Shown here: positions 38,243 to 64,000 of the stretch, one piece after another
Layout of the letters: the number at the start of each line of letters is the position of its first letter
Numbering within the stretch: position 1 is the first letter of the stretch
Source of the DNA: an uncultured Planctomycetia bacterium
GTDB lineage: Bacteria > Omnitrophota > Gorgyraeia > Gorgyraeales > Gorgyraeaceae
NCBI GenBank assembly: GCA_964415355.1
Contig: CAYPYS010000001.1
Coordinates: 145,733-209,732 of the forward strand
Direction: 5' to 3'
Length of the DNA: 64,000 bases
Notes under the pieces: model-generated
Database searches by the model: none
Seen by the model: the letters and a program-made list of their open reading frames with translations, nothing else
What the model was told of the DNA's origin: nothing
Translations under genes and position numbers: made by a program

Positions 38243-38247
38243 GGGCG

Positions 38248-39426
38248 TTAGCCGTAGGCCTCCAGCAATCTATCTTTGTTAAAATCCCAGGAAAGTTCTC
38301 CTTTTACTCTCTTGTAACCAGCCATCCCCATTTTATCCCTGCGTTTTTCGTCTTCCAGTAATTCGATGATCTTGTCGGCAAATTCCTGGATATTGTTAGG
38401 GGTCGCGTACAAAGCAGCGCTGCCTGCTAAATACTTTGATTCCTTTAAATCAAAACACACTATCGGCCGGGCCAGCGCCATATATTCCAATATCTTGTTC
38501 ATCGTGGAATTGTCATTGAACGGATTTTTAGGGTCGGCCGCAACGCACAAATCAGACGTGGAAAGATTTTTTAACAACCTCTCCCCGGACATCCTGCCAG
38601 TAAAAAAGACTGAACCGTTGAGCTTTAATTCTCTCTTCAACCTACGCAGGTCTTCGAACGAATCGCCGCTTCCTATTATGTTGAATAAAATGTCATCACG
38701 CTTATATCTGTTTATTATTATATCTATCGCGAGCAATAAATAATCGACTCCGTCCTGAGGAGCCGTAATCCCAAGATAAGTGACAAGAAATTTTTTTCCT
38801 TTTTTCAGGCTCTTATCCGGGGAAACCTTTTTAAATCTATCCAGATCGATACCGCTTCTCACGATAGACACCTTATCCGGAGCCAGTCTCCCCCTTGCGA
38901 TAGCAATATTCCTGTAAGAATTATTCGTGACAATGACCTTATCAGCTGTCTTGTATGTAAGATACTCTAAAATCAAGAGCAGCGAATAAAGAAAGTCTTT
39001 GCCTCGGCCTTCATATTTAGCCAGATATAACTCGGGGCATATGTCGTGCTGGTCAAAATAAAATTTCCTGCCAAAAATCTTATAAAACAAACCTGCGACA
39101 AAAAATATATCCGGTGGATTGCACGCATGAATAGCGTCAAAATTATGCCTGACAAAAACCCACAGGCTCAATATAAAGGTAATAATAAAACTGTATAGGT
39201 ACTCGAATATATGGCCAAATATCCCTTTAACACGAAAAGGCAGCATGCTATATCTATAGATATTTACGCCTTCCAATGACTCAAAGCCCTTCTCTTCTTT
39301 GAAACGAGGGCATATAACAGTCACACGTTTCCCGTTGTTTTTCAGCGCCTTGGCTTCAAGCCATACGCGCCTGTCAAAGGGAACTGAAAGATTTTGCACT
39401 AATATCAACACCTTATCGACTGCCAT
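38248..39426 (-). CDS. glycosyltransferase family 4
   Basis: 392 aa GT-B fold with a C-terminal EX7E-like region. Confidence 0.65.
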   Translation of the reverse strand: MAVDKVLILVQNLSVPFDRRVWLEAKALKNNGKRVTVICPRFKEEKGFESLEGVNIYRYSMLPFRVKGIFGHIFEYLYSFIITFILSLWVFVRHNFDAIHACNPPDIFFVAGLFYKIFGRKFYFDQHDICPELYLAKYEGRGKDFLYSLLLILEYLTYKTADKVIVTNNSYRNIAIARGRLAPDKVSIVRSGIDLDRFKKVSPDKSLKKGKKFLVTYLGITAPQDGVDYLLLAIDIIINRYKRDDILFNIIGSGDSFEDLRRLKRELKLNGSVFFTGRMSGERLLKNLSTSDLCVAADPKNPFNDNSTMNKILEYMALARPIVCFDLKESKYLAGSAALYATPNNIQEFADKIIELLEDEKRRDKMGMAGYKRVKGELSWDFNKDRLLEAYG

Positions 39427-39438
39427 GGCGTTCCTTCG

Positions 39439-40830
39439 TTAAATATTGCCTTTATTTACATATGAAATAAAGGGCCTGAATTTAACCGCGCTATTATCTA
39501 TAAGCGCATCTCTTCTGTCCAGGATCAATTCTGTCCCGGCTCCGAAATACTTCCTGACATTGGCCATTATCCTATTTTCATCCTTTTTGCAAAAACCATT
39601 GATTGGAACGAATTTCAGCCTTATTCTATCAAAATCCTCCTGTATAATCTGGGATTCTTTGATAGTATCTTGTAAACCCTGCAGGATGAAATAGACCTCT
39701 GATATGATCCTGCCGTCACGAAGCGTAAAAAAATCGGATAACCTGCCTTCTATCCTTTCTGCTACCTCGAACCTCCTGCCACACTCGCAATCCCTGCCAG
39801 AAAGTTGCACTATGTCTCCTGTGCGATATCGCAAAAGAGGCATCGCGTAATTATGTAAACCCGTTCCAACGAGCTCCAGCTTTCCTGATTCATCATCTAA
39901 AGGCAAAAACTCTGCGATTCCGTATTCCGGAACCACGTGATAGGCGCCCTGTTCGCACATATGTATAGCAGCCGCCCTTTCCGTGCTCCCATAATAATCG
40001 TATATCCTGGCATTAAAGACCTCCTCTATTAGATCCCTGTGTTCCGGCAGAAGTATTTCCGAAGAGGTAAATATTGCCTTGATTGAAGCGGCCCGCAAAG
40101 ATATGCCTTTCTCTTTTATAAATTTTGACAGGATATAAAGCGAGGACGCAACCGCCTCTATGGCCTTTGGCTTAAAATCCTCTATCGCCCTAACATAATC
40201 CAGCGTATTTTCTTTAGATATATGATACGCTGAAAGAAAAATTTTTCTTTCCGGAGCGCTGTATCTCCAGAAAGGCGCTTTTTTTACATTGAACGGCACC
40301 ACCTGCTCGTCCCTAAGCACAGCTATCCTGTCATAAGGACTTATACCTCCCCATTTTTTTTGTCTCCATAAAACAGCGTTTTCAAAATTTATTGAATACA
40401 GATCGCGATAAAATCTAAGCGGCTTCCCTGAAGTCCCGCTGGTAAAATCCCAGTTCAGAAATGCCTTATTGGCATTCCTGTCCAACAGGTCGTTGGAATA
40501 GTTGCGCACATCTTCCTTTGACAAAAGAGGCAGTTTTCTAAAATCGTCTATATTCCTTATATCATCCGGGGTTATTTTTAATTTTTTAAAAAGACTGCCG
40601 TAATAAGGGACGTTTTTATAAGCGTGCTGAATTAACAGATTAAGCTTTTTATCCTGCCATTCTCTGAGCTCTAAATCATTAAAATGCTGGGTCTTCTCGA
40701 GCTCGGAAGATATCTTCCTAAAGGCCCTGCCCTGCCGCAGTGAGCTATATAGTAAACCTCTTCCTGTTATAAAAAGATTCTGCAGTATTACCGGACTTCT
40801 TTTATAAATATTATTTTCTAACATAGCCAA
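39439..40830 (-). CDS. CapK/phenylacetate-CoA-ligase-like adenylate-forming enzyme
   Basis: 463 aa; TSGTSGKP adenylation motif; typical of capsule/EPS clusters. Confidence 0.6.
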   Translation of the reverse strand: MAMLENNIYKRSPVILQNLFITGRGLLYSSLRQGRAFRKISSELEKTQHFNDLELREWQDKKLNLLIQHAYKNVPYYGSLFKKLKITPDDIRNIDDFRKLPLLSKEDVRNYSNDLLDRNANKAFLNWDFTSGTSGKPLRFYRDLYSINFENAVLWRQKKWGGISPYDRIAVLRDEQVVPFNVKKAPFWRYSAPERKIFLSAYHISKENTLDYVRAIEDFKPKAIEAVASSLYILSKFIKEKGISLRAASIKAIFTSSEILLPEHRDLIEEVFNARIYDYYGSTERAAAIHMCEQGAYHVVPEYGIAEFLPLDDESGKLELVGTGLHNYAMPLLRYRTGDIVQLSGRDCECGRRFEVAERIEGRLSDFFTLRDGRIISEVYFILQGLQDTIKESQIIQEDFDRIRLKFVPINGFCKKDENRIMANVRKYFGAGTELILDRRDALIDNSAVKFRPFISYVNKGNI

Positions 40831-42355
40831 GATTATATCTATATTCCTTAGGTATAAATCTATCTAATTTTAAAAAAGATATAAATTCAAATATTATCCC
40901 TGTTTTCTTATTGGCAATATATATCAAGGGAACAGAGGCAATCAGCAATATTATCAACTTTACTATTAATTTTTTAATATCGGAAGACATGTCAAATGAA
41001 CTCGATATCACTATCTCATTAAAAACAAGCACTGAGCTTATATACAAAAGAGGCAGATATAGACCGGTTAGATAGCCCAGGCACTTAAAAGCATCTTTCA
41101 TATAATGGCTTGCCGCATATATAAAGATAACCGATCCTGTAAAAAAAGAAGCTAATAGAAAACCAGCGGCAGCTCCTATGATACCAAAGCCCATGTTTAT
41201 AAAAATCAGGCTGCTCGCAAATGCCGTGATAATACCGATAAAGTACGCCGGCACCAAAAATCTTTGTTTATTTACGGCGGTTATAAAAGAAAAGGCTGTC
41301 GGAGAAAAATAAGCTAAAAAATTAGCGACTAATATAATAAAAAATGCGGGGATAGATGCGGTATAGTCCGGCAAAAAATGTCTTATAAAGAATGCCGATA
41401 CTGTATAATAAACCGCCAATACGATGGGAAACAGCAAGGCCATTACCAGGCTAGGCTTAAATAAGTATTCCTTTAATTCTGAAATCTTGTGCGTCTCTCC
41501 GTATCTCTGATACATATAAGGTTCAAAAACCCTGTCTACGGACTCCTGGAAATACATTAAAAAACGCGCCGCAAGTATAGCAACGGAATAATATCCCAGA
41601 CTCGCTTTTCCCAACACCAGTAATACAATGATCCCCGTGACGCCTGCTATTGCTGTTTCTAAAAAATCTATGGACATAAGCGGAAAACCTATCTTTATCA
41701 ATCTGGATATTTCCCTGGTATTAAAACTCCATCCCAATCTATGGGGTGAACGAAACATAAGGTAAGTGATAGATACTAACGAAACCAATAAGGTAACTAT
41801 ATACACGCCGTATATCTTGAAAGCCGGGACAACAAGTATCGTCATAATCACGGCTAGAATAGAAAATATCATATTAGCCTTGCCTATGAAAAGAAACTTT
41901 TTCAACGCTAGGACCGCTGTCTGATAAAATTCATAGATAAAAAAGGTAAAGGAAAGAAAAGCGACGGTGACAAGCCCTGTTCTTTCAACCAGGGAAAGCC
42001 TGTTCCACAGGATAAGCGTAAAAATAATCAATGCGAATGAAAAAATGAAATTAACAACCAAACAAAAACTAAAAGCCGAATTCCTCGCGTCCTGCATGCC
42101 TTTCTCCGAGCGCATGCCTTTCTGATAAGATATTTCTCTGCCCATGGCCTCAATAGAGCCGAGATTGAGATAATAGCTAAAATTCAAGATTATATTTAAC
42201 GCCGACCATAATCCATATAAACCCGGACCCAGGATCTTCGCCCCCAGAAAGCCCCTTACGAAAAACATTATCCTCGCAACATAGCTGGAACCCGAGAAGA
42301 CCGACGCGTCTCTTAAGATATTCTGTCTGTTATTTGATTCATTCGTCACATTCAT
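40811..42355 (-). CDS. polysaccharide biosynthesis protein / oligosaccharide flippase (MOP/Wzx superfamily)
   Basis: 514-aa polytopic membrane protein (~12-14 TM). Confidence 0.6.
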   Translation of the reverse strand: MNVTNESNNRQNILRDASVFSGSSYVARIMFFVRGFLGAKILGPGLYGLWSALNIILNFSYYLNLGSIEAMGREISYQKGMRSEKGMQDARNSAFSFCLVVNFIFSFALIIFTLILWNRLSLVERTGLVTVAFLSFTFFIYEFYQTAVLALKKFLFIGKANMIFSILAVIMTILVVPAFKIYGVYIVTLLVSLVSITYLMFRSPHRLGWSFNTREISRLIKIGFPLMSIDFLETAIAGVTGIIVLLVLGKASLGYYSVAILAARFLMYFQESVDRVFEPYMYQRYGETHKISELKEYLFKPSLVMALLFPIVLAVYYTVSAFFIRHFLPDYTASIPAFFIILVANFLAYFSPTAFSFITAVNKQRFLVPAYFIGIITAFASSLIFINMGFGIIGAAAGFLLASFFTGSVIFIYAASHYMKDAFKCLGYLTGLYLPLLYISSVLVFNEIVISSSFDMSSDIKKLIVKLIILLIASVPLIYIANKKTGIIFEFISFLKLDRFIPKEYRYNLGYVRK

Positions 42356-42480: not shown

Positions 42481-43935
42481 TTAAATATGCGAAGCTGGAT
42501 CATCAAATCCGTCTGTTGGCGGCGGGAAATCCGGCGGACGCGTAGGCGGAATATAAGTCTCTGCGACCGGCGGTATGTATGTCTCCGCCACTGGTTTCTG
42601 TTTCGCCAGCACGCACATAATGTCGTCTTCTGTATACATCTCAAGAGGCGCGTACAACCTGTATGTTACTTTTACAGGAGAATCTATACTGGGGATCCTG
42701 CCCGTGTCTCCGTCGCCAAAATAGATACTCGCGTAATTTCCCGAATCCAGCCTGACCGTATAATCTTCGTCCAATGAAGAACTTTTTGTAAAATTATTTT
42801 TTCTGTTCCATTCTTCGAAGGTATCATCTTCCTGCACGTACACATGTAAATCGTATATTACAAAACCGGCGTTATTGAGTTCAAAACGCTGATTCTCCCT
42901 TCCATTGCTGCTGCCTACCATTTCATTGACCGGATTCTCATACAACACCATAGCAAGTTCTTCCCGGGTCAACATATCCTTGCGATCCGAACCTACGAAT
43001 ACATCTATACCTTGCCCCGAAAGGATCTCTGCTTCCAATAAATATCTCTCTTCCGGCTCAAGCAGAGCGAAATTTGACGGCAACTGATCTTCTAAATTCA
43101 TGCTCCTTATCAATAAATCCGCGAAATTTTCCTTCGTGAGAGGCTTTGATGGATTGTAAGCAAGCTTTAATTGACTGGTTATCATGGGATTTGAAAGAAG
43201 CGAGGCGGTCTCACATTCAGTAATAACCTCTTTTTCTTTGCCGTATATCTTATAAGACGCCTTCAATTTAGAGCCGGCAACTGGAACCCTGCCTTTATTA
43301 TTATCGCCAAACACAACCCTGGCATTATTGCAAGAGTCTAATTTCATGGCGTAGTGCTTATCAGTCGAAGAGCTTCCTTCGAGATTTCTCCTTCTCTCCC
43401 ATAACTCAAAGCCATCACCTTCGTCAACATAGACCTCCGCGCTATAAATAACAAGCTCGCTGTTTGAAAGTTCAAAATCCTGCTCAGCCAGCCCGGTCGA
43501 GTAACCAAGACCCTCTTCAATAGTCACGATCTGCAAGAGCCTGGCCAGTTCGTCTCTTGTAAGAAAATCCGAAGGATCAGTGCCCGCAAACACATCTATG
43601 CCTTTGTCTTTTAATAAGGTAGTCTCTATGATATAGCGCTTGTCATCTTCTATATCAGCTATACCCTGCGGGAGTTCATTGTCCAGCCTTAAGACCTGAA
43701 ACAAAATATCCACAAACAATAATTTTGTCACAGGTGCGTATTTTGCAGAGCCGCCTTCCCTGCAATGCCTCGCGGCCCTCAACAGAAATTCATTTACAGG
43801 TTCGCAGGGCCCTCTTTCAAGGCAGATAGCTCCCTCATTAGTTCTACATCTTATCCTGCACACATCTGCAGCTGACGCCTGCGTAGCAAAAAACATAACT
43901 CCAACAATCATAATAAGATAAATAATTTTTTTCAT
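42481..43935 (-). CDS. secreted protein with an internally duplicated ~180-aa module and C-terminal PPVAETYIPP repeats
   Basis: Signal peptide; two homologous halves (…GIDVFAGTDPSDFLTRDELA… / …GIDVFVGSDRKDMLTREELA…); tandem PPVAETYIP at the C-terminus. Confidence 0.5.
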   Translation of the reverse strand: MKKIIYLIMIVGVMFFATQASAADVCRIRCRTNEGAICLERGPCEPVNEFLLRAARHCREGGSAKYAPVTKLLFVDILFQVLRLDNELPQGIADIEDDKRYIIETTLLKDKGIDVFAGTDPSDFLTRDELARLLQIVTIEEGLGYSTGLAEQDFELSNSELVIYSAEVYVDEGDGFELWERRRNLEGSSSTDKHYAMKLDSCNNARVVFGDNNKGRVPVAGSKLKASYKIYGKEKEVITECETASLLSNPMITSQLKLAYNPSKPLTKENFADLLIRSMNLEDQLPSNFALLEPEERYLLEAEILSGQGIDVFVGSDRKDMLTREELAMVLYENPVNEMVGSSNGRENQRFELNNAGFVIYDLHVYVQEDDTFEEWNRKNNFTKSSSLDEDYTVRLDSGNYASIYFGDGDTGRIPSIDSPVKVTYRLYAPLEMYTEDDIMCVLAKQKPVAETYIPPVAETYIPPTRPPDFPPPTDGFDDPASHI

Positions 43936-44028
43936 GACACCCTCCTAATTTTTAAGTTAATTAAAATCCTTTTATAACTATTATATTATTATATCAAAAA
44001 TAAGCCTATAAAACAATTGATTTTTGCC

Positions 44029-44592
44029 TCAATCCTTCAGATGCACATCTGCGTATATTGCTAACATTTCCTGTATTTTTCTAGGTGGCAAGATAACAAA
44101 ATAGTGGTCTATAATGCAATGAGCCATCTCGTGCGCCAGTATTCCTTCTTTTACGTCCCTTTCTGTAGTATAAATTGTATTTGTCTTGTAGATGTAAAAA
44201 GAGGCCGCTTTATTTGGCTCATTAAAAATCTCTTCGTACACAGCGTTCAGGCCATTTCTATTCTTATAGATCCTCACTGTAACATTTATCTTAGATGGAA
44301 ACATATCTAATATATCTTCCGTCCTGGCGAATATCGCGTCTAACTTCTCTGCCACAGTTTCCTCTATCGATAAAACCTCTTTTGTTCTGAATCTTCTGGG
44401 ATTATAGAAATCAGAAAATCTAAGATTAATGCGCCTGTTAACCGTCTTCAAGTTGACTCCTTCTTCGTAAAAAACAGTGCAAAATCTGCTTGAAAATACC
44501 TGCCATTCCGTATCATAGCAATATGCAACATCTATCAGAAGCATCATCAAGCAGCCGGCTATCAATAAAATTTGTAAAAATTTAATTCTCAT
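44029..44592 (-). CDS. small secreted HExxH-motif protein (putative metallopeptidase-like)
   Basis: Signal peptide; HEMAHCIIDH motif. Confidence 0.4.
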   Translation of the reverse strand: MRIKFLQILLIAGCLMMLLIDVAYCYDTEWQVFSSRFCTVFYEEGVNLKTVNRRINLRFSDFYNPRRFRTKEVLSIEETVAEKLDAIFARTEDILDMFPSKINVTVRIYKNRNGLNAVYEEIFNEPNKAASFYIYKTNTIYTTERDVKEGILAHEMAHCIIDHYFVILPPRKIQEMLAIYADVHLKD

Positions 44593-44607
44593 AAAATTAC
44601 TGTTTTA

Positions 44608-44661
44608 CTCACCCCATACTCTGTAGGGGAGCCTTAAGGCTCCCCTACAGAGTATGGGGTG
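44608..44661. repeat. REP family 2 copy d, 54-bp perfect palindrome with arms unrelated to copy c
   Basis: TCACCCCATACTCTGTAGGGGAGCCTTAAGGCTCCCCTACAGAGTATGGGGTGA equals its own reverse complement. Confidence 0.9.
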
Positions 44662-44678
44662 AAAAATTTCAAACATGA

Positions 44679-45275
44679 CTAGCGTTTTATCTTGAAATGC
44701 CCCAGTGCCTTTTTCAGGTCTTTCTTGTCTTTCTTAAGCTCAGAAATGACCTTCTTTATGTCCTCCTTTAAAAGCAATTCATTGCTTGAGGAACCGGAAA
44801 GTTTTTCTATCAGATCGCCCAATTTGTCCGAAACATCGACTACCTTTAAAACCCCGCTATTAAGGTCATCTGTCATTTTATTAAAAGCGGTTACAAAATC
44901 TTGAAACTGATCCTTCTTTCTTATGCTTAGGTCCGAGGCTAGCTCTCCGGAGCCGACCTTTTCGACCTGCTTCTGAAACCTATACATAGGGCCCGCGACT
45001 CTATGCGTCATGAGAATCACTATGATAGAAGTAGCTACCGCGGTCAACACACCCACTATAATGCCTCCGAATAATAAACCTGGGATCAGGTAATCTGCCG
45101 TGCTCTTCACTACCAGCCTTGAATTCTCAAAAGACGTGGTGAGCGTCTTACTTGAAAGCGCATAAAGGATCAAGCCGAAAATAATGCACCCGAGCGCGAC
45201 TAGTGCGCAAAATTTCAATATAAATTCCGATTGGAATGCCTTGTTGATAAAATAGTTCCTTCGTCTGTATTTCAT
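44679..45275 (-). CDS. membrane protein with HAMP domain only
   Basis: Two TM helices followed by a HAMP-like amphipathic region and a Lys-rich tail. Confidence 0.45.
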   Translation of the reverse strand: MKYRRRNYFINKAFQSEFILKFCALVALGCIIFGLILYALSSKTLTTSFENSRLVVKSTADYLIPGLLFGGIIVGVLTAVATSIIVILMTHRVAGPMYRFQKQVEKVGSGELASDLSIRKKDQFQDFVTAFNKMTDDLNSGVLKVVDVSDKLGDLIEKLSGSSSNELLLKEDIKKVISELKKDKKDLKKALGHFKIKR

Positions 45276-45285
45276 GATATCCTCC

Positions 45286-45849
45286 TTATTTACTTTCTGA
45301 CAACGCCTTTTTAAAAAGTTCTTCGTTAATCTTTACATTTGCTTTTTCTTTTAATTTTTCTATCCACGCATTCATTGCCTCTGTTTCCTTCTTTTGCCTG
45401 ATAGCCCTTCTTATATCTCTCTTTGTCCTTGAAAAAGGCGCTCTTTCTCCGGAATCCCTATAATATTCTTCTATTTCATTGTCATATACGTGCGAAAGGC
45501 CCGATATCTCCCTGCTTTTCCTTTCGAGCAGCAATTTCAATAGGGCCTGTTCCCAATAACTCTCGATGCTCTTCATAAAATCCTTTTCTCTGTCAAGGCC
45601 CAGACGCTGCGCCTCCTGCAGCAGGATCTCCTTTTCTATTAATCTGTCCAGATACTCCTTGCTCCTGCCTTCTTCTAAAAGTTCCGCTTCGTCGTAGGGC
45701 AGGTTTTTCAGCTCATGCCTGAAATCATCCACTGTCATATTATAATTATTTATCTTTGCCACTATCCGCTTGTCGCCTTCTTCCGTAGCACAAGAACATC
45801 CTGAAAGAATAAGAACGCTGACTAAAATACTAAAAAATACTCTCTTCAT
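45286..45849 (-). CDS. SurA N-terminal-domain-like periplasmic chaperone lipoprotein
   Basis: Lipobox LSGCSC; helical SurA_N-like region. Confidence 0.4.
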   Translation of the reverse strand: MKRVFFSILVSVLILSGCSCATEEGDKRIVAKINNYNMTVDDFRHELKNLPYDEAELLEEGRSKEYLDRLIEKEILLQEAQRLGLDREKDFMKSIESYWEQALLKLLLERKSREISGLSHVYDNEIEEYYRDSGERAPFSRTKRDIRRAIRQKKETEAMNAWIEKLKEKANVKINEELFKKALSESK

Positions 45850-53807: not shown

Positions 53808-54983
53808 CTAGCCTATCGCCTTTTTATATATAACCATCAGCCTATCGTAGTGTTTCTCCGGGCCATACTTCTCTTTTGCGCATTTATAAGCATACTTGCC
53901 CATTTGCAATGCCATGTCGGGATTGCTGCTTGCGTATTCCATTTTTTCAGTCAGATCATACGCATTGCCCGGTTCAAACAAAAATCCGTTTTTCCCGTCT
54001 TCAACCACTTCAGGCAATCCGCCAGCCTTGGAGGCTATAACCGGCGTCCCCACAGAAAAACTTTCCAGGATCGACATCGGGAAATTATCATAACACTCCG
54101 AAGGGACGATGTTGAATCTTGCCTTCTGCAGGATTCCAAATCTTTTATCCCCCGGTATATATCCCAAAAATTCTATGCCTGATATATTATTTTTAGCGAC
54201 GTAGCCCTGCAGTTCATCTTCCAAGGGACCTTTTCCTACGATCTTCAATTTTAGTTTGCGTATTTTCCGAAAAACCCTTAACAATGTCACCAGCCCTTTT
54301 TCTTTTGAAACGCGCCCCATAAAAACAGCGTAATCTTCTTTTTTATTATAGTCGGGGGACATCTCTTCCTGAGGCAGGAAATTTTCCTCTACTTCTATCT
54401 TTTCCTCGGGAAACCCGGCTTTAACGAACTTATCCTTTGCGAAACAGGATAATACTATAAACCTGTCTATCTTTTTCTCAAAAGTCCTTATCTTCCTATG
54501 GAGCCAGAAAGTCAATGCGTACAATCCAGATAAGAGAAAACTATCTTTGTAACATTTATGAAAAAAACAGTTAAACGTATTGCCTCCTTTACACTTCTCG
54601 CAAACAGCATTATTCCTATAAAAAAGTCCGTTCGGGCATAGAAAACGGTAATTATGCACTGATTGCACGATTGGTATCCTTCGCCGCTTCAGGCAATAAT
54701 ATACGGAAGGCGATATCACGGGAAAGACATTATGTATATGAGCGACATCGGGCCTCTCGCCATCGATCAACTTATTCATCTCTTTAAGCGTCCTGCGCGA
54801 ATAAACAGTTTCCGCGAGAAATCCGATCTTTTTTATAAGGTTGTATCCTTTTATATCGTTATTATGCATCGTGTATCGAACGACGCTGTGCCCGTTCGCC
54901 TCGAGCAGCCTGCGCTCAGAGTCCACAACCCTGTCTTCGCCTCCGGGAATCTGATAGAAATTATGTATTTGCAGTATGTGCAT
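53808..54983 (-). CDS. glycosyltransferase family 4
   Basis: GT-B GT4 C-terminal motifs (GGLPEVVEDGKNGFL). Confidence 0.7.
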   Translation of the reverse strand: MHILQIHNFYQIPGGEDRVVDSERRLLEANGHSVVRYTMHNNDIKGYNLIKKIGFLAETVYSRRTLKEMNKLIDGERPDVAHIHNVFPVISPSVYYCLKRRRIPIVQSVHNYRFLCPNGLFYRNNAVCEKCKGGNTFNCFFHKCYKDSFLLSGLYALTFWLHRKIRTFEKKIDRFIVLSCFAKDKFVKAGFPEEKIEVEENFLPQEEMSPDYNKKEDYAVFMGRVSKEKGLVTLLRVFRKIRKLKLKIVGKGPLEDELQGYVAKNNISGIEFLGYIPGDKRFGILQKARFNIVPSECYDNFPMSILESFSVGTPVIASKAGGLPEVVEDGKNGFLFEPGNAYDLTEKMEYASSNPDMALQMGKYAYKCAKEKYGPEKHYDRLMVIYKKAIG

Positions 54984-54988
54984 CTTAC

Positions 54989-56476: not shown

Positions 56477-56504
56477 GGCAGCGCCCTCTTAAATCTGCCG
56501 TGCT

Positions 56505-57824
56505 TCAATTAAGTTTATCTATCGCCCCGGTCAATATATAGTTAAAAGAGATCAGTTTCTTTTGTTTTAAATAAATAAACATGGCTATTGTGACTAAGAT
56601 TTCCGTGATTAACAGAGAAACGGATATCCCTATATGCTTGAAAGGCGGGGTCAATAACAACGATAAGATTATATTGATAACCCCCACGGATACGAGGATC
56701 CCTGAAAAAGCCTTCTTGTGATTAAACGTGAGCATGGTCTGAATGCCTAATATATTGCTCAGGCTGATTATAAACGGTAAAAATGCCAGTATCCTTAATA
56801 CGATTACGGACTGGTAATACTGCCCACCCAGGACTATATTGACTATAGGGGCGGCGAATATAAAAATCGTCAGAGAAATAATGAAAGTCCCCCCACCCAA
56901 AAGAATGGTCAGCTTTCTTATAAACCTTAAAGCCCTTTCCCTGGATTCGTTCGCAAGTTTGCTTATATATGGGAACACTACGTTTGACATAGGGGATAAT
57001 AGCCTCTGTATAGATCTGATGAATCTCTCTGCCGCCGAATAATACCCTACGATTGCATTGCTTGCAAACAACCCCAGAATAAACGTGGTGCTTGTCGTGT
57101 ATAAACTGATCGATGCCCCGGAGATAAATACGTGCCAACCCTCTTTTAACTGGTGGCTTATCGTCTTAAAATTAGGGCGGGAAAATCTTATTTTAAAATT
57201 CTTACGCGCGATCCATAAGCCTAAAATACCGGCTATTAAAAACCCCAGGGATTCTATCAGGGGGACGTAAATATAATCGTGCGTATGCCTTATAAATATA
57301 AATATTGAAGCTGCAAAGACAAACTTGCCGACAATGTTCAAAAACAGGATATGTTTCATTTTTTCCATCCCCTGAAAAAACCAGACCGGCAGAAATGCAT
57401 GGCCTATGACCACGCCAAAGGTAAAAAGATAAACAAGGTAATCCTTCCTGAGCCTGGGGACAAAAAATACCAGTCCCATTAAAAGCGACAGGCTGATGAT
57501 TAAAAAACAAAATTTAATGAACAGCACGGAACTGAAGATCTCATCCGTCTTCTTTTTGTCTTCCCTGTTTATGGATATCTGCCTTGTCGCAGGTATATCT
57601 AATCCGTAATCTATTAAAAGAGAAAAATACTGAATAAACGCACGTGCAAAGGCAATAAGCCCGAATCTTCCGGGACCCAGGACCCTGACCAGATAAGGCA
57701 GGGTAATGAGAGCGAAAAAGGAATCCGCTGCCTTTAAAGAAGACAGGGAGAAAAAATTCTCAAACAATGTCTTTTTTTCCGGAGTAGCAATGGCCCTTTT
57801 AAAAAAATTCTTGCCGAATAACAT
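56505..57824 (-). CDS. oligosaccharide flippase (Wzx/MOP family)
   Basis: 439 aa, ~12 TM; PST-family features. Confidence 0.6.
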   Translation of the reverse strand: MLFGKNFFKRAIATPEKKTLFENFFSLSSLKAADSFFALITLPYLVRVLGPGRFGLIAFARAFIQYFSLLIDYGLDIPATRQISINREDKKKTDEIFSSVLFIKFCFLIISLSLLMGLVFFVPRLRKDYLVYLFTFGVVIGHAFLPVWFFQGMEKMKHILFLNIVGKFVFAASIFIFIRHTHDYIYVPLIESLGFLIAGILGLWIARKNFKIRFSRPNFKTISHQLKEGWHVFISGASISLYTTSTTFILGLFASNAIVGYYSAAERFIRSIQRLLSPMSNVVFPYISKLANESRERALRFIRKLTILLGGGTFIISLTIFIFAAPIVNIVLGGQYYQSVIVLRILAFLPFIISLSNILGIQTMLTFNHKKAFSGILVSVGVINIILSLLLTPPFKHIGISVSLLITEILVTIAMFIYLKQKKLISFNYILTGAIDKLN

Positions 57825-57848: not shown

Positions 57849-60407
57849 TTATAAAGTCCTCAATCTGATCCCGTCTATATGAAGATTTCTGTCTTCCGCG
57901 GATTCTTCATCGTAATAATCGTTCTCAAAAACTATCCCCAGCCTGTTAGCGGGGCAATCTACGATTATAATGCCTGAATACTCTTTCCAGTCGCCAATGA
58001 CATCTAAGTCCATCACATGCTTATCATTGAACTTTATTATCATGCGAGGCCATATGCCAAGCGCTTCCCGGCCTTTCGCATTGAGCTTAAATTCATATAT
58101 ACCGGCTGGCAGAAATACATCCAAAGTCAACCCTTCTTCGGAATAGATATCTTTTTTTATGTCAAAATCCAAATCAAAACCTCCTGATCTGAAATCCACT
58201 GACACGGGAATATGATTAAAATCAAGTATCTTTTTTATTTCTGCGGGGCGATAATAAATAGAGCCTGTTTTTCTTGATATCTTATATTCCAGTTGATAGG
58301 CTTCCGCGTTTCTGGAGTCTATTGCCAGCGATTTTTCCAAAAATCTTCTTGCTGTATCTATATGGCCTTCGTTTAAATAATATTCGCCCAGGGATGCAAA
58401 GAATACAGACTTGCTTTCTGGGGAGAATTTCGTCTTCCTGTATCCAGCTAACGCGTCTTCTATAAGAGACATCTTCAGATAGCACTTGAGCCGTCCCAAT
58501 TTTACATTTTCATTGTCTCTCCCGAACGACTCTGCCATCTCATAATAAACCATTGCCTTATTTATGTCCTGAGAGGCAAAGGCCAGATCCGCAATGCTTT
58601 CATAAGGTTCCCCGTCTGTAAAAGATCCCGCCATTGACGAATGCCATTTCGACTCTGACATTGCGCGCGAGGCGTTTTTGTATAACCTGCTGGATATATC
58701 CGTATTACCTGAATTCAGGAGAAAACCGGCATGCTTTTTTAAGTAATACCAGTTTGCCGGGTCTAAATCTACGGCTTTCCTGTAAGCGCTGTCCGCTAAT
58801 CTTAGAAGGTTGTCTTCTGTAACAGAGTATCTGGAGAGGCGATAATAACTATCGGCTAAGCCCATCCACGACCATGCATCTATAGGGTTTAAATACAGCG
58901 CCTCTTTGTATTTCTTCACTGACTTATTAATATATTGCCTGCCGTCAGTTTTGCCCTGAGCCTTCTTGCTATAGATATTTGCCAGTTTATACGGGTATAA
59001 ATAATTAAAACGGCACAGATTTATCGCAGTAAGTGACAAACCTTCTGCTTTTTCCAGATTATTCCTGACAAAAGCCCTGTCAGATGCCGTTGAGCAGATC
59101 TCCGCAGCAAGCACAGTGCTTATAAAAATAATAGATGCTGTCATGGTTATCAACGCAAATGGCTTAAAAAATCTGGTTAAGGCAGGGCTAAGTTTCAAGA
59201 CAAGATCAGGATATCTTTTTTCCTTTTTAGAGGATATGTTGAAAATAAGGGCGGAAAAAACAGTAAATATAATAGCATTGGCGGGTATATAAAAATTGAA
59301 ATCCCCTAATCCGTGAAGAGACATGCTTAAAACCGCCACTGTCAGCGAAAGGGAGCTCCATTTTTTAAAAGAACTCATGGCTATCGCATAAGTCGTAAAT
59401 CCCTTTTTGACTATATTACAGATGATAATAACCGCCAGGCATGAAGCAAATATGCCTATTTCAGAAGCTATCTGCAGATAATCATTGTGCGCATAGTTTA
59501 CAAGCATATTCAAGCCCAGAGGCCTGTATTTTGGAAAATTGTAAATAAAGGTCCCTGGCCCGGTGCCTAAAAACCAGTTATCTTTTATCATGCCAAGAGT
59601 ACCTTTCCATATCTCCACTCTTCCTGCAAAATCCAATTCTTTATAACTCGAGATCCTTGCCAACAGCAATTTTGGATCTATTGCATTGTATATGAAAATT
59701 CCAAGGATTATAAAAAGCAGGGCTGACATAAAAAATACGAACCTGGCCTTACCTCTCTTGATTATAACAGCTGCCATGACAAGTAAAGACAACGATAAAG
59801 AAAACCAGCCGCCTCTTGACATAGAAAGGAGAAAGGCAGTGCATAAAAGCAAAAATGAGTAGATATACAGGGATTTCCTGCTCTTGTCTTTTTCGTATAA
59901 AATCATGCCTATTGAAAGCGGGATAATAAGTTCTGTCAACCCTGCGAAATGGTTATGATTTACATAGGTAGATGATAGAAATCTGGGATTATCCCACCAC
60001 GACTTATCAAGGACGCCCAGATACTGCAATATACCGAATAAAGCTATGCCTGTGCCAATGGCTAAAATTATATTTAGCGTTCTCTTTATCTCCTTTTCGC
60101 TCCTTATGAAATTTACTACGATATAAAAAATTGAGGCCAGGATAGCAAGTTTTATGATCTCCATAATAGACCCATATATATATTTAGAATTAATGATAGA
60201 TATAATAGATATAAGGGCAAATAATAATATAGATATATCTATAGGGGTCTTTTTTATGCGGATCTCTTTTTCCCTGGCTATCATAAAAGTCCAGAAAATA
60301 AGCATCGATAAAGTAAGGATATATATAGGGCCATAAGCCCATATCCTGACTGCCCCCCTTGCTATGGGAGCTAATATAAGGATTGCGTAGAGAATATAAT
60401 GTATCAT
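57849..60407 (-). CDS. O-antigen ligase-like membrane domain fused to periplasmic TPR repeats and a C-terminal beta-sandwich
   Basis: 852 aa; N-terminal polytopic Wzy_C-like region; central TPR repeats; C-terminal soluble domain. Confidence 0.5.
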   Translation of the reverse strand: MIHYILYAILILAPIARGAVRIWAYGPIYILTLSMLIFWTFMIAREKEIRIKKTPIDISILLFALISIISIINSKYIYGSIMEIIKLAILASIFYIVVNFIRSEKEIKRTLNIILAIGTGIALFGILQYLGVLDKSWWDNPRFLSSTYVNHNHFAGLTELIIPLSIGMILYEKDKSRKSLYIYSFLLLCTAFLLSMSRGGWFSLSLSLLVMAAVIIKRGKARFVFFMSALLFIILGIFIYNAIDPKLLLARISSYKELDFAGRVEIWKGTLGMIKDNWFLGTGPGTFIYNFPKYRPLGLNMLVNYAHNDYLQIASEIGIFASCLAVIIICNIVKKGFTTYAIAMSSFKKWSSLSLTVAVLSMSLHGLGDFNFYIPANAIIFTVFSALIFNISSKKEKRYPDLVLKLSPALTRFFKPFALITMTASIIFISTVLAAEICSTASDRAFVRNNLEKAEGLSLTAINLCRFNYLYPYKLANIYSKKAQGKTDGRQYINKSVKKYKEALYLNPIDAWSWMGLADSYYRLSRYSVTEDNLLRLADSAYRKAVDLDPANWYYLKKHAGFLLNSGNTDISSRLYKNASRAMSESKWHSSMAGSFTDGEPYESIADLAFASQDINKAMVYYEMAESFGRDNENVKLGRLKCYLKMSLIEDALAGYRKTKFSPESKSVFFASLGEYYLNEGHIDTARRFLEKSLAIDSRNAEAYQLEYKISRKTGSIYYRPAEIKKILDFNHIPVSVDFRSGGFDLDFDIKKDIYSEEGLTLDVFLPAGIYEFKLNAKGREALGIWPRMIIKFNDKHVMDLDVIGDWKEYSGIIIVDCPANRLGIVFENDYYDEESAEDRNLHIDGIRLRTL

Positions 60408-60506
60408 ATAGACAAAAACTCCCTGGACAGCGATTTTCCCCTCCTTCTCATCTGTCTTTTAGACAGATGCCGTGGCTGGTGGGGCTTCCAGCTTGCCCAG
60501 GGAGCA

Positions 60507-61292
60507 TTATAGATGAAATCCGTTATTAACGATCCTTACGAAATGCTCTACTATATCGCTGTCAAATTGAGCGCCTCTCTTTTGAATGATCTCATTTACG
60601 GCTATTTCTTTAGACACGGGTGTTTTATAAGAATGCGGTGATATCATTGAATCGTATGCTTCTGCTATTGAAATAATACGCGCGCCTTTCTGAATGTTCC
60701 TTCTATCCAGGCCTTTGGGATAACCCTTGCCATTCACTTTCTCATGATGCTGCGCAACTATTGCCGCGACGTCTTTTAACTCTTTTATGGAGCTCAACAT
60801 CTTTGCCCCCAACGCTGGATGTTTTTTTACTAATTCATATTCATGGGGCGTAAGCGTATCTTGTTTAAAAATTATATACTTATCTATACCTATATTTCCT
60901 ATATCGTGAAGAAGGCCTGCTATCTCTATCTTTTTTATATCGGAATCACTCATATTCATATCACGCGCTATTTCTGAAGCCAACCTTGATACTTCCTGGG
61001 CATGAAGGATAGAAGATTCACCGGCAGGGCCAAATGTCTTGAATACGCCTAGTATACTTGTGCATAAAGCATCTATTAATGAAACATTATATATATTACC
61101 ATTATCTATGGGCATATCGCCAAGTATAGACAGAAGTTCACTCTTGCGGATCCTATGATGGCCTCCCGGCGTTTTGAGCGTTCTCAGCTTGCCTGTATAG
61201 ATATAGTTCTTTATGGTCGAGAGACTTAGATTCACATGCCCTGCTGCTTGTTTAGGCGTAAAATAAATCTCTTGGTCAAATTTATTTTTCAT
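60507..61292 (-). CDS. HTH (MerR/excisionase-type) plus HD-GYP domain protein, probable c-di-GMP phosphodiesterase/regulator
   Basis: N-terminal HTH; HD motif (LLHDIGNIGID); GYP motif (GKGYPKGL). Confidence 0.65.
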   Translation of the reverse strand: MKNKFDQEIYFTPKQAAGHVNLSLSTIKNYIYTGKLRTLKTPGGHHRIRKSELLSILGDMPIDNGNIYNVSLIDALCTSILGVFKTFGPAGESSILHAQEVSRLASEIARDMNMSDSDIKKIEIAGLLHDIGNIGIDKYIIFKQDTLTPHEYELVKKHPALGAKMLSSIKELKDVAAIVAQHHEKVNGKGYPKGLDRRNIQKGARIISIAEAYDSMISPHSYKTPVSKEIAVNEIIQKRGAQFDSDIVEHFVRIVNNGFHL

Positions 61293-63390
61293 GGCTGTAA
61301 TACTTTCCGTAATAATATTGCGGGTAAGAGTAACAATCCTTCGTAAGCGATATATTATTAACTATAACCCCTACAATATTAGTGTTCACTTTCTGCAATA
61401 ATTCTTTTGCGTTATTTAAAAGCGGTTTTGTTATCCTGCTGCCGTCCGCTACCAGCACGGCCCCCGTGCAGATACTTGATAATATCTGGGCATCTGTCAC
61501 AAGAGCGACCGGAGGCGTATCAAAAATAACCTTGGAAAATTTGGAAGAGGCGATCTTCAGGAAAAGCTTCATGTTCTCCGATGAAATCAATTCTGCCGGC
61601 TTATCGGTGATCTTTCCTGCTGTAACAAAATAAAGGTTGTTGACCTTCGAAGTTCTGCAAATGCTATCGAAATCATTTCTTCCCAGAAGGAATTGAGAAA
61701 GCCCTGTCTTGTTCTCGACATTGAATACCGTATGCATTCTAGGTTTCCTCATATCGGCATCCACCAAAAGGACCTTTTCGCCGCTATTCGCAATCATAGT
61801 CGCGAGATTTACGGCAGTAAGGGTCTTGCCTTCCTTGGGGACAGAGCTTGTAATAACTATGCTCTTTGCCCCTCCTGAATGATTTATAGAAAATAGTAAA
61901 TTTGTCCTGATGGTGCGATAGGCCTCGGAAGCCAACGAATGCGAATCTCTTTCAACAATGCGATCTATTTCCTCTGCGTTTCTTACGTTTTTCCCGTCAG
62001 GCTTGATCTTAGGGACAGAGCCTAAAATAGGGGATTGAAGCAACGCGGCTATCTCTCTCGGGTCCTTTAACGTAACATCCATATGTTCCTTAAAAAAAGC
62101 CAGGCCTATGCCTCCCCCCAGGCCCAATATAATAGATAAAGCTATATTAAGTCCTTTTTTAGGCCTGACAGGTTTTCTGGGTACCTCCGCGATATCCTGT
62201 ATGCGCACGTTATTCGTCTGTATATTGCTTGCCACGGATGTTTCTTTCAATCTATTCAAGGCAATTTGCAGGATCCTGCTGTTGGTCTCTATCTCTCTTT
62301 CTAATGCATTGTAATCAATGATCTTCCTCTCGAATTCGAGCGCCTGCCTCTTCCTGTCATCTAATGCCGTTTTTAATTCGTTCTCTTCTTCCAGGGAATT
62401 TTCGTATTCTGTCCTTATCCCCGTTAACGCATTGTTGTATTCTGTCTTTATCTCCCTGTTTACAAGTGACTCAAGATGAGAGATGTTTTCCAGAAGCCTT
62501 ATCATCTTAGGATGTTTGTGTTTATATATTTTTTTATACTCTACCAGCAATGATGTCTGCTTTAGATATTCTTCTTTTAACCTCTCAAGGTTCTCATTGG
62601 AAACCAGGGGCGCTGGCAGATTCTCCGTAGTCATATCGCCTTCCTGCCCAAGCAGATTTCTATAGGTGGCCTCGGACTGGATTCTTCTCTTTTGGGCATC
62701 CAGATAACTGGCGTTTAATCTGATCAATGCGTCATTGATTATTTCCTGCTGATTTTCTATGGAAAAGATGTTATTTTCCTCTTTATATTTCTGCAGCCCT
62801 GCTTCCGCTTCACTTACTTTCTTTTTCTGTCTTTCGACTTCTTTCCTTAGCCAATCCTGCGCCTCGTTGGACACGTCTATTTTTAAATCTATATTGGAAT
62901 TGACATAGATCTTTGCAAATTCATTCGCGATCCTGCTTGCAAGCTTAGGATCCCTGCTTTCAGCATGTATTTTTATAATCCTGGCATCTCCTACAAGATC
63001 TACCTTTAATTTCTTGAGCAAAATCTCTATAGGATCTTTCTTTTTCCTGTATTCTTCTTCATCCGCGAGCCTCAGATTTTTCATTACAGCATGAGCGACG
63101 CGCCTGCTTCTTATTATCTCCTTCTGTGTTTCTATGTAATCCCTGTATAAGTAATATTCTGTCTCTCCTAGCTTAACGACATCCTTCACGGACAAAACAG
63201 AAGGGCTCTCTATATCGATTATAACCGTAGCCGCAGCCCTATATACCGGCTTTTGTATAAAAGAAGCCAGCGCGACAGTGGTGACAGTAATAAAAAAGAA
63301 GCTTGCGGCTACCCACTTTCGGCGACGCAATATATTAAGATAGTCTCTCAGGTGCATATTTATATTTTCATTTATAGTACTTAATTCCAT
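61282..63390 (-). CDS. polysaccharide co-polymerase / tyrosine autokinase (Wzc/BY-kinase)
   Basis: 702 aa; N-terminal TM plus GumC/Wzz periplasmic coiled-coil; second TM; C-terminal P-loop kinase with Walker A (SSVPKEGKTLTAVNLA) and Tyr-rich tail (YYYGKYY). Confidence 0.8.
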   Translation of the reverse strand: MELSTINENINMHLRDYLNILRRRKWVAASFFFITVTTVALASFIQKPVYRAAATVIIDIESPSVLSVKDVVKLGETEYYLYRDYIETQKEIIRSRRVAHAVMKNLRLADEEEYRKKKDPIEILLKKLKVDLVGDARIIKIHAESRDPKLASRIANEFAKIYVNSNIDLKIDVSNEAQDWLRKEVERQKKKVSEAEAGLQKYKEENNIFSIENQQEIINDALIRLNASYLDAQKRRIQSEATYRNLLGQEGDMTTENLPAPLVSNENLERLKEEYLKQTSLLVEYKKIYKHKHPKMIRLLENISHLESLVNREIKTEYNNALTGIRTEYENSLEEENELKTALDDRKRQALEFERKIIDYNALEREIETNSRILQIALNRLKETSVASNIQTNNVRIQDIAEVPRKPVRPKKGLNIALSIILGLGGGIGLAFFKEHMDVTLKDPREIAALLQSPILGSVPKIKPDGKNVRNAEEIDRIVERDSHSLASEAYRTIRTNLLFSINHSGGAKSIVITSSVPKEGKTLTAVNLATMIANSGEKVLLVDADMRKPRMHTVFNVENKTGLSQFLLGRNDFDSICRTSKVNNLYFVTAGKITDKPAELISSENMKLFLKIASSKFSKVIFDTPPVALVTDAQILSSICTGAVLVADGSRITKPLLNNAKELLQKVNTNIVGVIVNNISLTKDCYSYPQYYYGKYYSHEK

Positions 63391-63400
63391 GGTCTTCTCC

Positions 63401-63976
63401 TTAAAAGAAACTCTCCGGCACTACGATGATGTCACCTGGTTTAACAGCAATATCCTTGTCCTTATTACCCTTCTTTGTTATGTCGCTCACCTTTATAGGT
63501 ATGGTGATCTCTTCGCCTTCTTCTACGCGTATTATCTTTGTAGAATTTTCAGCTGCGCCTCTTCTGAACCCGCCTGCCATAGTAATGGCCTCCAGCGCTG
63601 TAGTAGGCCTGTCCTTAAAAAGTTCGTACTCGCCCGGCCTATTGACAAATCCCATCACAAACACCTTCTCAGGGTGATACTCCTTTATAAAGACATTCAC
63701 CTGCGGATCTACCAAATAGTCCTTTTCCAGCAAAAATCTTATCTTCTCCTCAACTTCATTTACCGAAAGGTCTTTTATATCCACTGTCCCTAAAAGCGGG
63801 AACATGATCTCGCCGTTCGGGCTGACCCTTAATTCAGTCGTGAGGTCAGGATGCTCGTATACGGTTATAGTAAGGACATCCCCTGCTTCTACCTTATATT
63901 CCTCGGAAGAATAGCTATTGGAGGGGCTGAAGGCTAGAATAATAAATATTATTAATAATATTTTTCTAATAAGCAT
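63401..63976 (-). CDS. polysaccharide export protein (Wza-like)
   Basis: 191 aa; signal peptide, polysaccharide-export and SLBB domain motifs (PGDIIVVPE). Confidence 0.7.
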   Translation of the reverse strand: MLIRKILLIIFIILAFSPSNSYSSEEYKVEAGDVLTITVYEHPDLTTELRVSPNGEIMFPLLGTVDIKDLSVNEVEEKIRFLLEKDYLVDPQVNVFIKEYHPEKVFVMGFVNRPGEYELFKDRPTTALEAITMAGGFRRGAAENSTKIIRVEEGEEITIPIKVSDITKKGNKDKDIAVKPGDIIVVPESFF

Positions 63977-64000
63977 AATGATTTCTTGTGGATTCCCGCT

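Follow-up and report, generated by a model that had tools for sequence, protein, structure and literature searches.

Wzx/Wzy-type loci for capsules and extracellular polysaccharides (EPS), exemplified by the group 1 capsule/colanic acid loci of Escherichia coli and the EPS locus of Myxococcus xanthus, consist of conserved export genes around a variable, serotype-like centre. The locus described here lies in a 64-kb stretch of DNA (the window) from a member of the uncultivated phylum Omnitrophota and is free of a 39-nucleotide (nt) palindrome, termed family 1, that is otherwise dense in the surrounding sequence. With the known loci it shares a WbaP/WcaJ-like transferase, glycosyltransferases of families GT4 and GT26, MOP flippases, Wzy_C proteins, Wzc and Wza. 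In contrast to these systems, it has no Wzb gene, translationally couples a helix-turn-helix (HTH)-HD-GYP gene to wzc, and carries an extra Wzy_C-TPR-CBM60 protein and a second flippase. Composite translocons of a short outer membrane polysaccharide export (OPX) protein and a beta-barrel are represented by EpsY/EpsX of M. xanthus and VpsN/VpsM of Vibrio cholerae (PMC9601211, PMC9603273), in which an 18-stranded barrel interacts with the OPX protein. The Wza of the present locus (about 190–204 amino acids, aa) comprises D1/D2-type domains only (Poly_export and one SLBB domain), and its gene is found directly downstream of that for a 428-aa BBP2_2 protein, which lies just outside the window; this predicted pair fits a composite translocon. 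The PEP-CTERM/exosortase (XrtA) EPS loci show weak similarity through EpsD, EpsF/EpsG, the stp glycosyltransferase, PrsT and TIGR03097. This class was rejected since no exosortase was matched among the proteins of the locus and none of the XrtA-associated NCBIfam matches reached its curated cut-off, unlike those of the general models TIGR03025, TIGR00696 and TIGR01007. A parallel for the regulator is offered by 'trigger' phosphodiesterases of the PdeL (YahA) type, which combine a DNA-binding domain with a cyclic diguanylate (c-di-GMP) phosphodiesterase (EAL). The present protein likewise fuses an HTH to a phosphodiesterase-type domain, but this domain is HD-GYP rather than EAL and the HTH is of the HTH_17 excisionase/MerR type. 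Finally, depletion of repetitive extragenic palindromic (REP) sequences in acquired islands has precedent in other bacteria. The sharp local absence of a dense intergenic palindrome recalls such islands, from which the present locus differs in being host-like, syntenic across the phylum and devoid of mobility genes or a tRNA boundary. No description of an Omnitrophota EPS locus was found in the literature.

Family 1 is an imperfect palindrome (consensus CTAACTTTACATTTCAACAACGTTAAAGTGTAAAGTTAG) present in both orientations; its stem spans 18 bp and its loop 3 nt. All 22 copies in the window fall within positions 1–38243. The last one (38205–38243), situated between a sensor kinase gene (35498–38155) and the first gene of the polysaccharide cluster, from which it is separated by 4 nt, forms the left edge of the repeat-free zone. 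An earlier note on this DNA had reported that no copy falls between 38.2 kb and the window end, the only element there being a family 2 REP at 44608. This holds: not a single family 1 copy was detected in 38244–64000, even with 10 mismatches allowed. The window was extended 10 kb past its end via locus L001 on the 159.5-kb JGI contig Ga0118720_1000045 (window coordinate = 73391 − L001 coordinate). There, family 1 returns at the mnmE/folE junction (at about window position 66038), followed by three further copies within the next 6 kb. The zone (about 38244–66037, 27.8 kb) comprises folE and the polysaccharide genes. At flank density, about 16 copies are expected in such a stretch and none is observed; the element occupies 21 of the 39 gene junctions in the two flanks and none of the 22 in the zone (Fisher p = 8.8e-6). 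Once the element is subtracted, 13 of the 21 occupied flank junctions are left with a spacer of at most 30 nt. Among all junctions of this size, 13 of 26 carry family 1 in the flanks as against none of 17 in the zone (p = 4e-4), and among wide junctions 8 of 13 do so in the flanks and none of five in the zone (p = 0.036). It seems probable that the zone represents a resident Wzx/Wzy EPS locus in an old, conserved slot in which family 1 insertions are not tolerated or not retained.

The evidence for residence comes from synteny. The slot, bounded by folE and a module of two genes that includes the sensor (histidine) kinase, is defined by the order ychF-purH-folC-mnmE-folE, cluster, sensor kinase, which is found in relatives whose kinase or MnmE is only 64–86% identical to that of the window organism. 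Sequences from species B (L007, L020 and L014), L015, L016, L017, L018, L019, L021 and L022 (Candidatus Gorgyraea atricola), and additionally L023 and L024, were compared, the comparison with species B covering the sequence retrieved. As yardsticks of relatedness, MnmE and the kinase of species B are 84 and 86% identical to those of the window organism; kinase identities amount to 89% for L015, 71% for L017, 71% for L016, 68% for L018 and 63% for L019, and L021 stands at 52% for HD-GYP and 69% for MnmE. Among homologues of the HD-GYP protein and of the 885-aa kinase in the flank, the great majority bear the name Candidatus Omnitrophota/Omnitrophica, and one is from Candidatus Gorgyraea atricola. 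A cluster between folE and the kinase occurs in at least five other lineages; species B, L017, L018 and L021 are those in which the locus was placed in the folE-to-kinase slot. Species B has the order mnmE-folE-BBP2-Wza-Wzc-HDGYP-WzyTPR-Wzy481-Wzx507-GT4-Wzx506-GNAT-DUF362 and so forth (numbers denote product lengths in aa), with other genes beside the kinase. Identities to its proteins are 88% for BBP2, 88% for Wza, 89% for folE, 83% for HD-GYP, 73% for Wzc, 58% for WzyTPR, 66% for Wzx2 and 45% for GNAT, and the flank genes are 81–94% identical. L021 reads ychF-purH-folC-mnmE-folE-BBP2-Wza-Wzc-HDGYP-WzyTPR-Wzy-Wzx-GNAT-deacetylase-GT4-WbaP. In L017 the order epimerase-GNAT-deacetylase-DUF362-beta-helix-WbaP-SurA-198-186-483-kinase is preserved at 56–79% identity; L018 has a tail like that of L017, with variations. 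L022 features the same core, joined by a CapK-like ligase, but differs in its left flank. Overall, the divergence of cluster proteins tracks that of the flanks.

Two relatives are informative by what they lack. In L016, folE is directly followed by the SurA-like, 198-aa and 176-aa genes and the kinase, and there are no EPS genes. In L019, folE is followed by a 430-aa gene (6683–7975), the SurA-197-204 genes and the kinase, and the EPS genes are otherwise missing. The 430-aa protein aligns only with residues 23–180 and 388–684 of Wzc and appears to be what remains of Wzc after an internal deletion. Taken together with the L016 arrangement, this pattern points to loss rather than gain. The most economical reading of these alignments is that an EPS locus at the folE-to-kinase slot would be ancestral to the clade and lost in some lines. 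The middle of the region (42481–45849) is occupied by conserved non-EPS genes, of which the trio at 44029–45849 is retained even in the EPS-less L016 and L019. Since the SurA-198-187 trio, usually accompanied by the 484-aa gene, constitutes a conserved backbone, the region is to be regarded as two EPS segments split by core genes.

The history of the element itself is consistent with a long coexistence. The ychF/purH and mnmE/folE junctions carry family 1 in the window genome and none in species B, whereas the folC/mnmE junction holds family 2 here and family 1 in species B; family 1 positions vary among the window genome, species B and L015. The element was therefore mobile while the locus was already resident. 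The gap itself recurs: the glycan zone of species B (about 25 kb) contains no family 1, with two copies in 11.4 kb of flank, and none of the five zone junctions of L015 is occupied, with four copies in its flank. Family 1-like 39-nt palindromes were also found in L017 (8185–8223) and L021 (3778–3816), and a further one in L022 (2892–2932). In these variants the arms AACTTTACA...TGTAAAGTT are kept or compensated and the central stem covaries: the centres still pair (TTTGAGG/CCTCAAA, TTTGAAG/CCTTAAA) and the arms of L021 are compensated as TTGACA/TGTCAA. To judge from these variants, the hairpin is kept by covariation across the phylum, and it follows that family 1 and the locus have coexisted for a long time. 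A younger age of family 1 relative to the locus, first deduced from L016–L019 (no match at ≤11 mismatches), was dropped after the L017, L021 and L022 variants had been found. A density of about one copy per 1.7 kb is reached only in the window genome.

Other properties of family 1 were noted in passing. The copies at 726, 6789, 13984, 15911 and 27663 overlap the upstream stop codon by exactly 4 nt, the terminal CTAA/TTAG of the element providing the stop codon of the upstream gene, while for those at 3355 and 18503 the overlap reaches 17 nt, so that they specify the C-terminal residues of the protein. These overlaps suggest a target near the stop codon, or insertion at the 3′-ends of genes. 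Genes for tRNA-Ala(GGC) and tRNA-Leu(CAA) (27495–27658, minus strand), the only matches in an Rfam scan of the window, are enclosed by oppositely oriented copies at 27431 and 27663. No enzyme that might mobilise family 1 was seen. Consensus scans for promoters and terminators in 18–38 kb and 38–58 kb were uninformative: terminator counts were at shuffle expectation, family 1 was not flagged as a terminator, and promoter-like sites were modestly in excess to a similar extent in both segments.

The flanks indicate what may keep the element out. The left flank holds an assortment of unrelated housekeeping genes (mcsB, mcsA, lolCD, lysS, lnt, secA, prfB, uvrC, murJ, holA, lptE, bamD, comEC, leuS, accA and others), and beyond BBP2_2 on the right follow folE, mnmE, folC, purH, ychF and type II secretion pseudopilin genes. 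Here, family 1 mostly separates functionally unrelated genes and is not found in the coupled sets lolD-lolC, holA-lptE-bamD and CDP-alcohol transferase/radical-SAM, a pattern that suggests selection against punctuating co-expressed pathway genes. The zone would then be made up of a few long, tightly coupled pathway operons in which family 1 insertions are selected against; this selective cause of the depletion is what we infer, together with the pathway order and the role of the regulator set out below. Several observations weigh against such an explanation. Family 1 does occur inside operon pairs, e.g., mcsA/mcsB, and in two species it splits, at an identical position, a pair of type II secretion pseudopilin genes that overlap in a more distant relative. 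Strict exclusion of family 1 from operons was downgraded on account of the copies in these two operons. Moreover, 13 of the element-bearing flank junctions would otherwise be as tight as those of the cluster, and tight spacing alone therefore cannot explain the gap. Four wide gaps of the zone are without family 1; a conserved promoter was shown in one of them (folE/BBP2), and a hairpin conserved in species B in another (60408–60506). The L017 variant is located within the orthologous region, where it separates the 186-aa gene from the 483-aa gene, so that the tail gaps are not strictly refractory. Finally, neither the interior cassette nor the position of the tail trio is shared with the closest relatives, and their recent arrival is possible.

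This last point leads to the strongest competing explanation, a tentative one, according to which the locus is old and its interior (about 45.9–60.4 kb) and tail trio (38.2–42.4 kb) were recently replaced or rearranged, with homologous recombination bringing in family 1-poor Omnitrophota alleles in the manner of a capsule switch and wiping out insertions time and again. The cassette Wzx439-Wzy495-GT4-WecG-epimerase is indeed missing from the retrieved sequence of species B (L020, L014), which has non-orthologous Wzy and Wzx instead, and the fall of species B identity to 73% in Wzc and 58% in the Wzy_C-TPR protein points in the same direction. The GNAT protein, at 45% identity to species B, is 67% identical to that of the more distant L017, and the same cassette order is encountered in L023. 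The tail trio (38248–42355), although made up of genes ordinary for this locus, is seen beside the kinase only in the window genome: its site holds two methyltransferase genes in L015, where the order is 198-187-484, two methyltransferases, kinase, and other genes in L014, and the trio is absent in L017 and L018. In most relatives, family 1-type copies do not exceed one in 20 kb. On the other hand, the junctions of the vertically inherited head (five) and of the tail core (three) are empty as well, for which the probability at flank rate is about 0.002 (0 of 8). The closest Wzy495 homologue is only 67% identical and no donor is known; the acetyltransferase-to-WbaP block, 66–79% identical to L017 with the kinase at 71%, is no closer to that relative than the flanks are; and the composition of the interior is fully host-like. 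Replacement of the interior cassette by recombination may nevertheless remove further insertions.

Far less of a case can be made for recent acquisition of the entire 38.2–64 kb cluster, not yet colonised by the resident repeat, as had been proposed in the earlier note; this is very improbable. Family 1 is wholly absent from the zone as compared with 54% occupancy in the flanks, GC content is about 3 points below that of 1–38 kb, and L016 and L019 have no EPS genes at the site, all of which would be expected of a young island. However, the proposed AT-richness holds only in part. GC amounts to 44.25% in 1–38247 and 41.2% in 38248–64000, but it is equally low (41.1%) in the repeat-bearing segment 29001–38247 and reaches 42.8% in the right flank. 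Low GC thus starts at about 29 kb, inside repeat-bearing DNA, and the composition boundary does not match that of the repeats. Per-gene GC is lower in the zone (p = 3e-4); most of this difference arises at first codon positions, where amino-acid composition is reflected, and the contrast is inflated by the GC-rich left-flank genes secA, prfB, uvrC, murJ, leuS and accA. No difference is seen in Karlin codon-bias distance to the flank gene set (0.28 vs 0.29, p = 0.41), in GC at third codon positions as compared with the nearer flanks (p = 0.86), or in dinucleotide delta* (56 vs 59, p = 0.93), and in tetranucleotide usage the zone correlates no less well with the whole contig. The zone is host-like in composition and codon usage; uniform codon usage had been named in the earlier note as grounds for refutation, and on these grounds the island fails. 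The same slot, order and flank-like divergence in species B, L017, L018 and L021 leave it without support, as do the Wzc remnant of L019, which indicates loss, the conserved non-EPS genes in the middle, and the age of the family 1-type elements, whose positions turned over while the locus was resident. No integrase or transposase was detected among the 21 zone proteins, and neither a tRNA nor a direct-repeat boundary was found, the tRNAs lying at 27.5 kb. Chance, or a shortage of intergenic spaces large enough to take up 39 nt, can be dismissed, since, although 17 of the 22 zone junctions are at most 28 nt wide or overlap, equally tight flank junctions are occupied, the five wide zone gaps are empty too, and a family 2 REP entered a junction only 4–36 nt wide in relatives. 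In ranking the causes of the repeat gap, constraint on EPS operons and functional gaps is the most likely, interior turnover a real contributor, and acquisition of the whole locus refuted.

The locus itself can be divided into four parts, all genes being encoded on the minus strand. Genes were assigned by Pfam and NCBIfam profile searches and pairwise BLASTP (E ≤ 1e-3 in the paralogue test), and all Wzx/Wzy-pathway Pfam matches (Polysacc_synt, Polysacc_synt_3, Wzy_C) lie above gathering scores. The calls of the earlier note—two flippases, two Wzy_C proteins, Wzc, Wza, a WbaP-like transferase and an HTH-HD-GYP protein beside wzc—are thereby confirmed. The promoter-driven head, conserved across the phylum and concerned with export and regulation, comprises BBP2_2, short Wza, Wzc, HTH-HD-GYP and Wzy_C-TPR-CBM60. 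The BBP2_2 beta-barrel gene (about 64040–65326, just past the window end) lies immediately upstream of that for the short Wza (63401–63976, or to 64015 in a longer call; 191–204 aa), as it does in L020–L022 and L024 besides L001. Wzc, the PCP-2a co-polymerase and tyrosine autokinase (61282–63390), shows Wzz, GNVR and AAA_31 matches, scores 191 bits with TIGR01007, above the cut-off, and ends in a C-terminal tyrosine cluster (YSYPQYYYGKYY). The HTH_17-HD-GYP gene (60507–61292; HD_5, 123.5 bits) overlaps the wzc stop by 11 nt, and the Wzy_C domain, TPR and CBM60-like C-terminal domain protein (57849–60407; Wzy_C, 80 bits) completes the head. The variable cassette consists of the flippase Wzx439 (56505–57824; Polysacc_synt, 207 bits), the Wzy_C protein Wzy495 (54989–56476; 44 bits), a GT4 glycosyltransferase (53808–54983), a WecG/TagA/CpsF glycosyltransferase of family GT26 (53010–53789; Glyco_tran_WecG, 205 bits) and an SDR sugar-nucleotide epimerase/dehydratase (52030–53013; Epimerase, 166 bits). 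Polymerase and ligase roles are indistinguishable in Wzy_C sequences, and Wzy495 is the probable repeat-unit polymerase.

A conserved block for modification and initiation follows, with a FemAB-like GNAT acyl/aminoacyl transferase (Acetyltransf_6; 50894–52078, the JGI call starting at 52027), a polysaccharide deacetylase (49932–50897; Polysacc_deac_1, 85.5 bits, a Pfam family corresponding to CAZy CE4), a DUF362 protein (48469–49920; 78% identical in L017), a probable right-handed beta-helix protein (47321–48472; weak signal, 72% identical in L017) and the WbaP/WcaJ-like polyprenyl-phosphate hexose-1-phosphate transferase (45861–47309; Bac_transf, 231 bits; TIGR03025, 419 bits with a cut-off of 296), the sole priming enzyme of the locus. 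The last part is formed by the ancestral trio, the 484-aa gene and a relocated tail trio. The ancestral trio encodes a SurA_N-like/EpsD-like chaperone-type protein (45286–45849), a 198-aa protein with a weak HAMP-like signal (44679–45275) and a conserved 187-aa protein (44029–44592) that is kept in relatives devoid of EPS genes. The conserved 484-aa protein (42481–43935) adjoins the kinase in L015, L017 and L018 at 56–77% identity; like the 187-aa protein, it could not be assigned a function, and relaxed Pfam searches of the four function-unassigned proteins yielded nothing above cut-off. In the tail trio, the MOP flippase-like Wzx2 (40811–42355; Polysacc_synt_3, 49.5 bits) is followed by a PaaK/CapK/F390-synthetase-like adenylate-forming ligase (39439–40830; all NCBIfam matches below cut-off), which is 44% identical to the product of the CapK_C gene in the Candidatus Gorgyraea locus and is probably a polymer-modifying enzyme, and by a GT4 glycosyltransferase (38248–39426; Glycos_transf_1, 74 bits) with 65% identity to a GT4 in the L018 cluster.

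Judged by these assignments, the WbaP-like enzyme would prime undecaprenyl phosphate, after which the GT26 and GT4 enzymes would build the repeat unit. The unit would then be flipped by a MOP flippase and polymerised by Wzy_C, and Wzc, short Wza and the beta-barrel would export the polymer as a composite translocon. The two flippases and two Wzy_C proteins had been described in the earlier note as a duplicated set, for which two separate glycan products or a branched pathway were considered plausible. Duplication is contradicted by the sequences: neither Wzx439 and Wzx2 nor Wzy495 and the Wzy_C-TPR protein match each other by BLASTP at E ≤ 1e-3, and the pairs are therefore not duplicates. Wzx2 is the orthologue of the locus flippase in L020, L022 and L021 (66, 52 and 36% identity), and Wzx439 shares no more than 26% identity with the additional Wzx found in species B. 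The Wzy proteins of L020, L022 and L021 (481, 458 and 477 aa) are mutually related and share no BLASTP similarity with Wzy495 at the same threshold. Wzy495 is rare, with 24 homologue clusters among 5.8 billion proteins; next to the closest of them (67%, L023) lie an upstream, unannotated 406-aa gene, Wzy, a GT4+WecG fusion and an epimerase, i.e., the same order. By these comparisons, 52030–57824 appears to behave as a swappable, serotype-like cassette. Two independent pathways side by side, a doubtful proposition, would account for the dissimilarity within both pairs and for a cassette with its own Wzx-Wzy pair next to a second, phylum-conserved flippase in the tail. Yet there is only one priming transferase and one Wzc/Wza/beta-barrel set, and L021 and L022 have a single flippase together with the same pair of Wzy_C and Wzy_C-TPR proteins. 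The Wzy_C-TPR-CBM60 protein (58, 52 and 37% identical in L020, L022 and L021) accompanies a plain Wzy_C protein in every relative examined and is thus a standing component of one system. Because of the one priming enzyme and the one export set, a single glycan pathway with accessory functions is favoured over two independent glycans. In L024 (14896–17874), a locus with a similar set of genes whose Wzy is 49% identical to Wzy495, TPR-CBM60 (444 aa) and Wzy_C (477 aa) are encoded by separate adjacent genes, and the 852-aa protein is therefore a fusion of two separable units.

The regulator is conserved in the metal-binding and catalytic motifs of HD-GYP proteins as well as in its position. H97, H129-D130, H158, H183-E184 and G190-Y191 are invariant among 16 family members, H182, P192 and D214 are at least 90% conserved, and the HTH segment TIKNYIY.GKL...KTPGGHHRI is conserved more strongly than the HD-GYP residues. 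More than 370 proteins share the architecture, those with a named source being mostly from Omnitrophota and one from Thermodesulfobacteriota; no description of it was found in the literature. The gene follows wzc directly in all four lineages inspected, standing where a Wzb phosphatase usually sits, and no gene for a Wzb-type phosphatase is present in the locus. The earlier note's proposal of c-di-GMP control is plausible as far as the intact HD/HHE/GYP motifs and the position next to wzc in four lineages are concerned. The top match among solved structures is a phosphodiesterase specific for 3′3′-cyclic GMP-AMP (3′3′-cGAMP; 5z7c), and c-di-GMP HD-GYP enzymes match as well; the substrate may therefore be c-di-GMP or another cyclic dinucleotide. 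Control of the EPS locus by a cyclic dinucleotide via this protein is plausible, and it would probably link expression or activity to such a ligand.

Two sites at which transcription might be set are found in the head. The folE/BBP2 gap (L001 7950–8064, about window 65327–65441) contains a stretch rich in A and, after it, TTGACA-N17-TGGTATACT; this arrangement is conserved in four lineages and is likely a strong sigma-70-type promoter driving the export operon. Between the HD-GYP and Wzy_C-TPR genes, which overlap in L021 and L022, the window genome has a 99-nt hairpin with a T-run (60408–60506, minus strand; GC 54%, −45.6 kcal/mol). The stem base and T-run are kept in species B, an inner hairpin has been gained in the window genome, and no Rfam model matches; the element is a candidate attenuator or terminator. 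It is conceivable, if rather speculative, that the HTH-HD-GYP protein is a DNA-binding phosphodiesterase of the trigger-enzyme kind, controlling how strongly the EPS promoter fires or how often transcripts pass the hairpin, and, separately, that the absence of the palindrome marks transcription units that may not be punctuated. If the latter were true, it would imply that family 1 acts on RNA (processing, stability) instead of being neutral junk.

A second repeat, family 2 (core AGGGGAGCCTTAAGGCTCCCCT), has four copies in the window (30094, 33600, 34202 and 44625) and two more past its end in L001. The one within the zone is a 56-nt perfect hairpin (44608–44663) around the core 44625–44646, located between the 187-aa and 198-aa genes; it lies in an 86-nt gap (−55.9 kcal/mol) that is only 4–36 nt wide in four relatives (L016–L019). 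Outside the zone, a gene for a 163-aa Y1 (IS200-like) transposase (33634–34125, plus strand) sits between the family 2 hairpins at 33600 and 34202 and is the only compositional outlier (GC 30%, codon-bias distance 0.60). This is the layout of a REP-associated tyrosine transposase (RAYT) with its REPs, and family 2 therefore probably has its own mobilising enzyme. Nearby, the adjacent genes 30153–30989 and 31008–31865 share similar DNA at a spacing of 858 nt (a 52-nt repeat with 73% identity) and look like a tandem pair; the former has a weak outer-membrane beta-barrel signal, and the pair (30153–31865) is conserved in L015 and L016. Across up to 21 kb, identity is no lower than 99.98% among six assemblies (L001–L006) that stem from different metagenome samples, suggesting that one clonal population has been sampled widely; the five other assemblies of the region gave no signal of strain-level variation.

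To a specialist the locus is largely ordinary and holds nothing surprising; modest interest attaches to the HTH-HD-GYP and Wzy_C-TPR-CBM60 proteins and to the exclusion of a dense palindrome. It nevertheless defines an EPS locus of Omnitrophota that combines a conserved promoter and a composite exporter with the Wzy_C-TPR-CBM60 protein and an as yet uncharacterised HTH-HD-GYP regulator, and provides a clear case of the conserved ends and swappable centre typical of Wzx/Wzy loci. A repeat gap with lower GC mimics a young island; here, it coincides with a multi-gene locus that ranks among the oldest conserved ones in an uncultivated phylum, and there is evidence that the distribution of family 1 is shaped by more than residence time.

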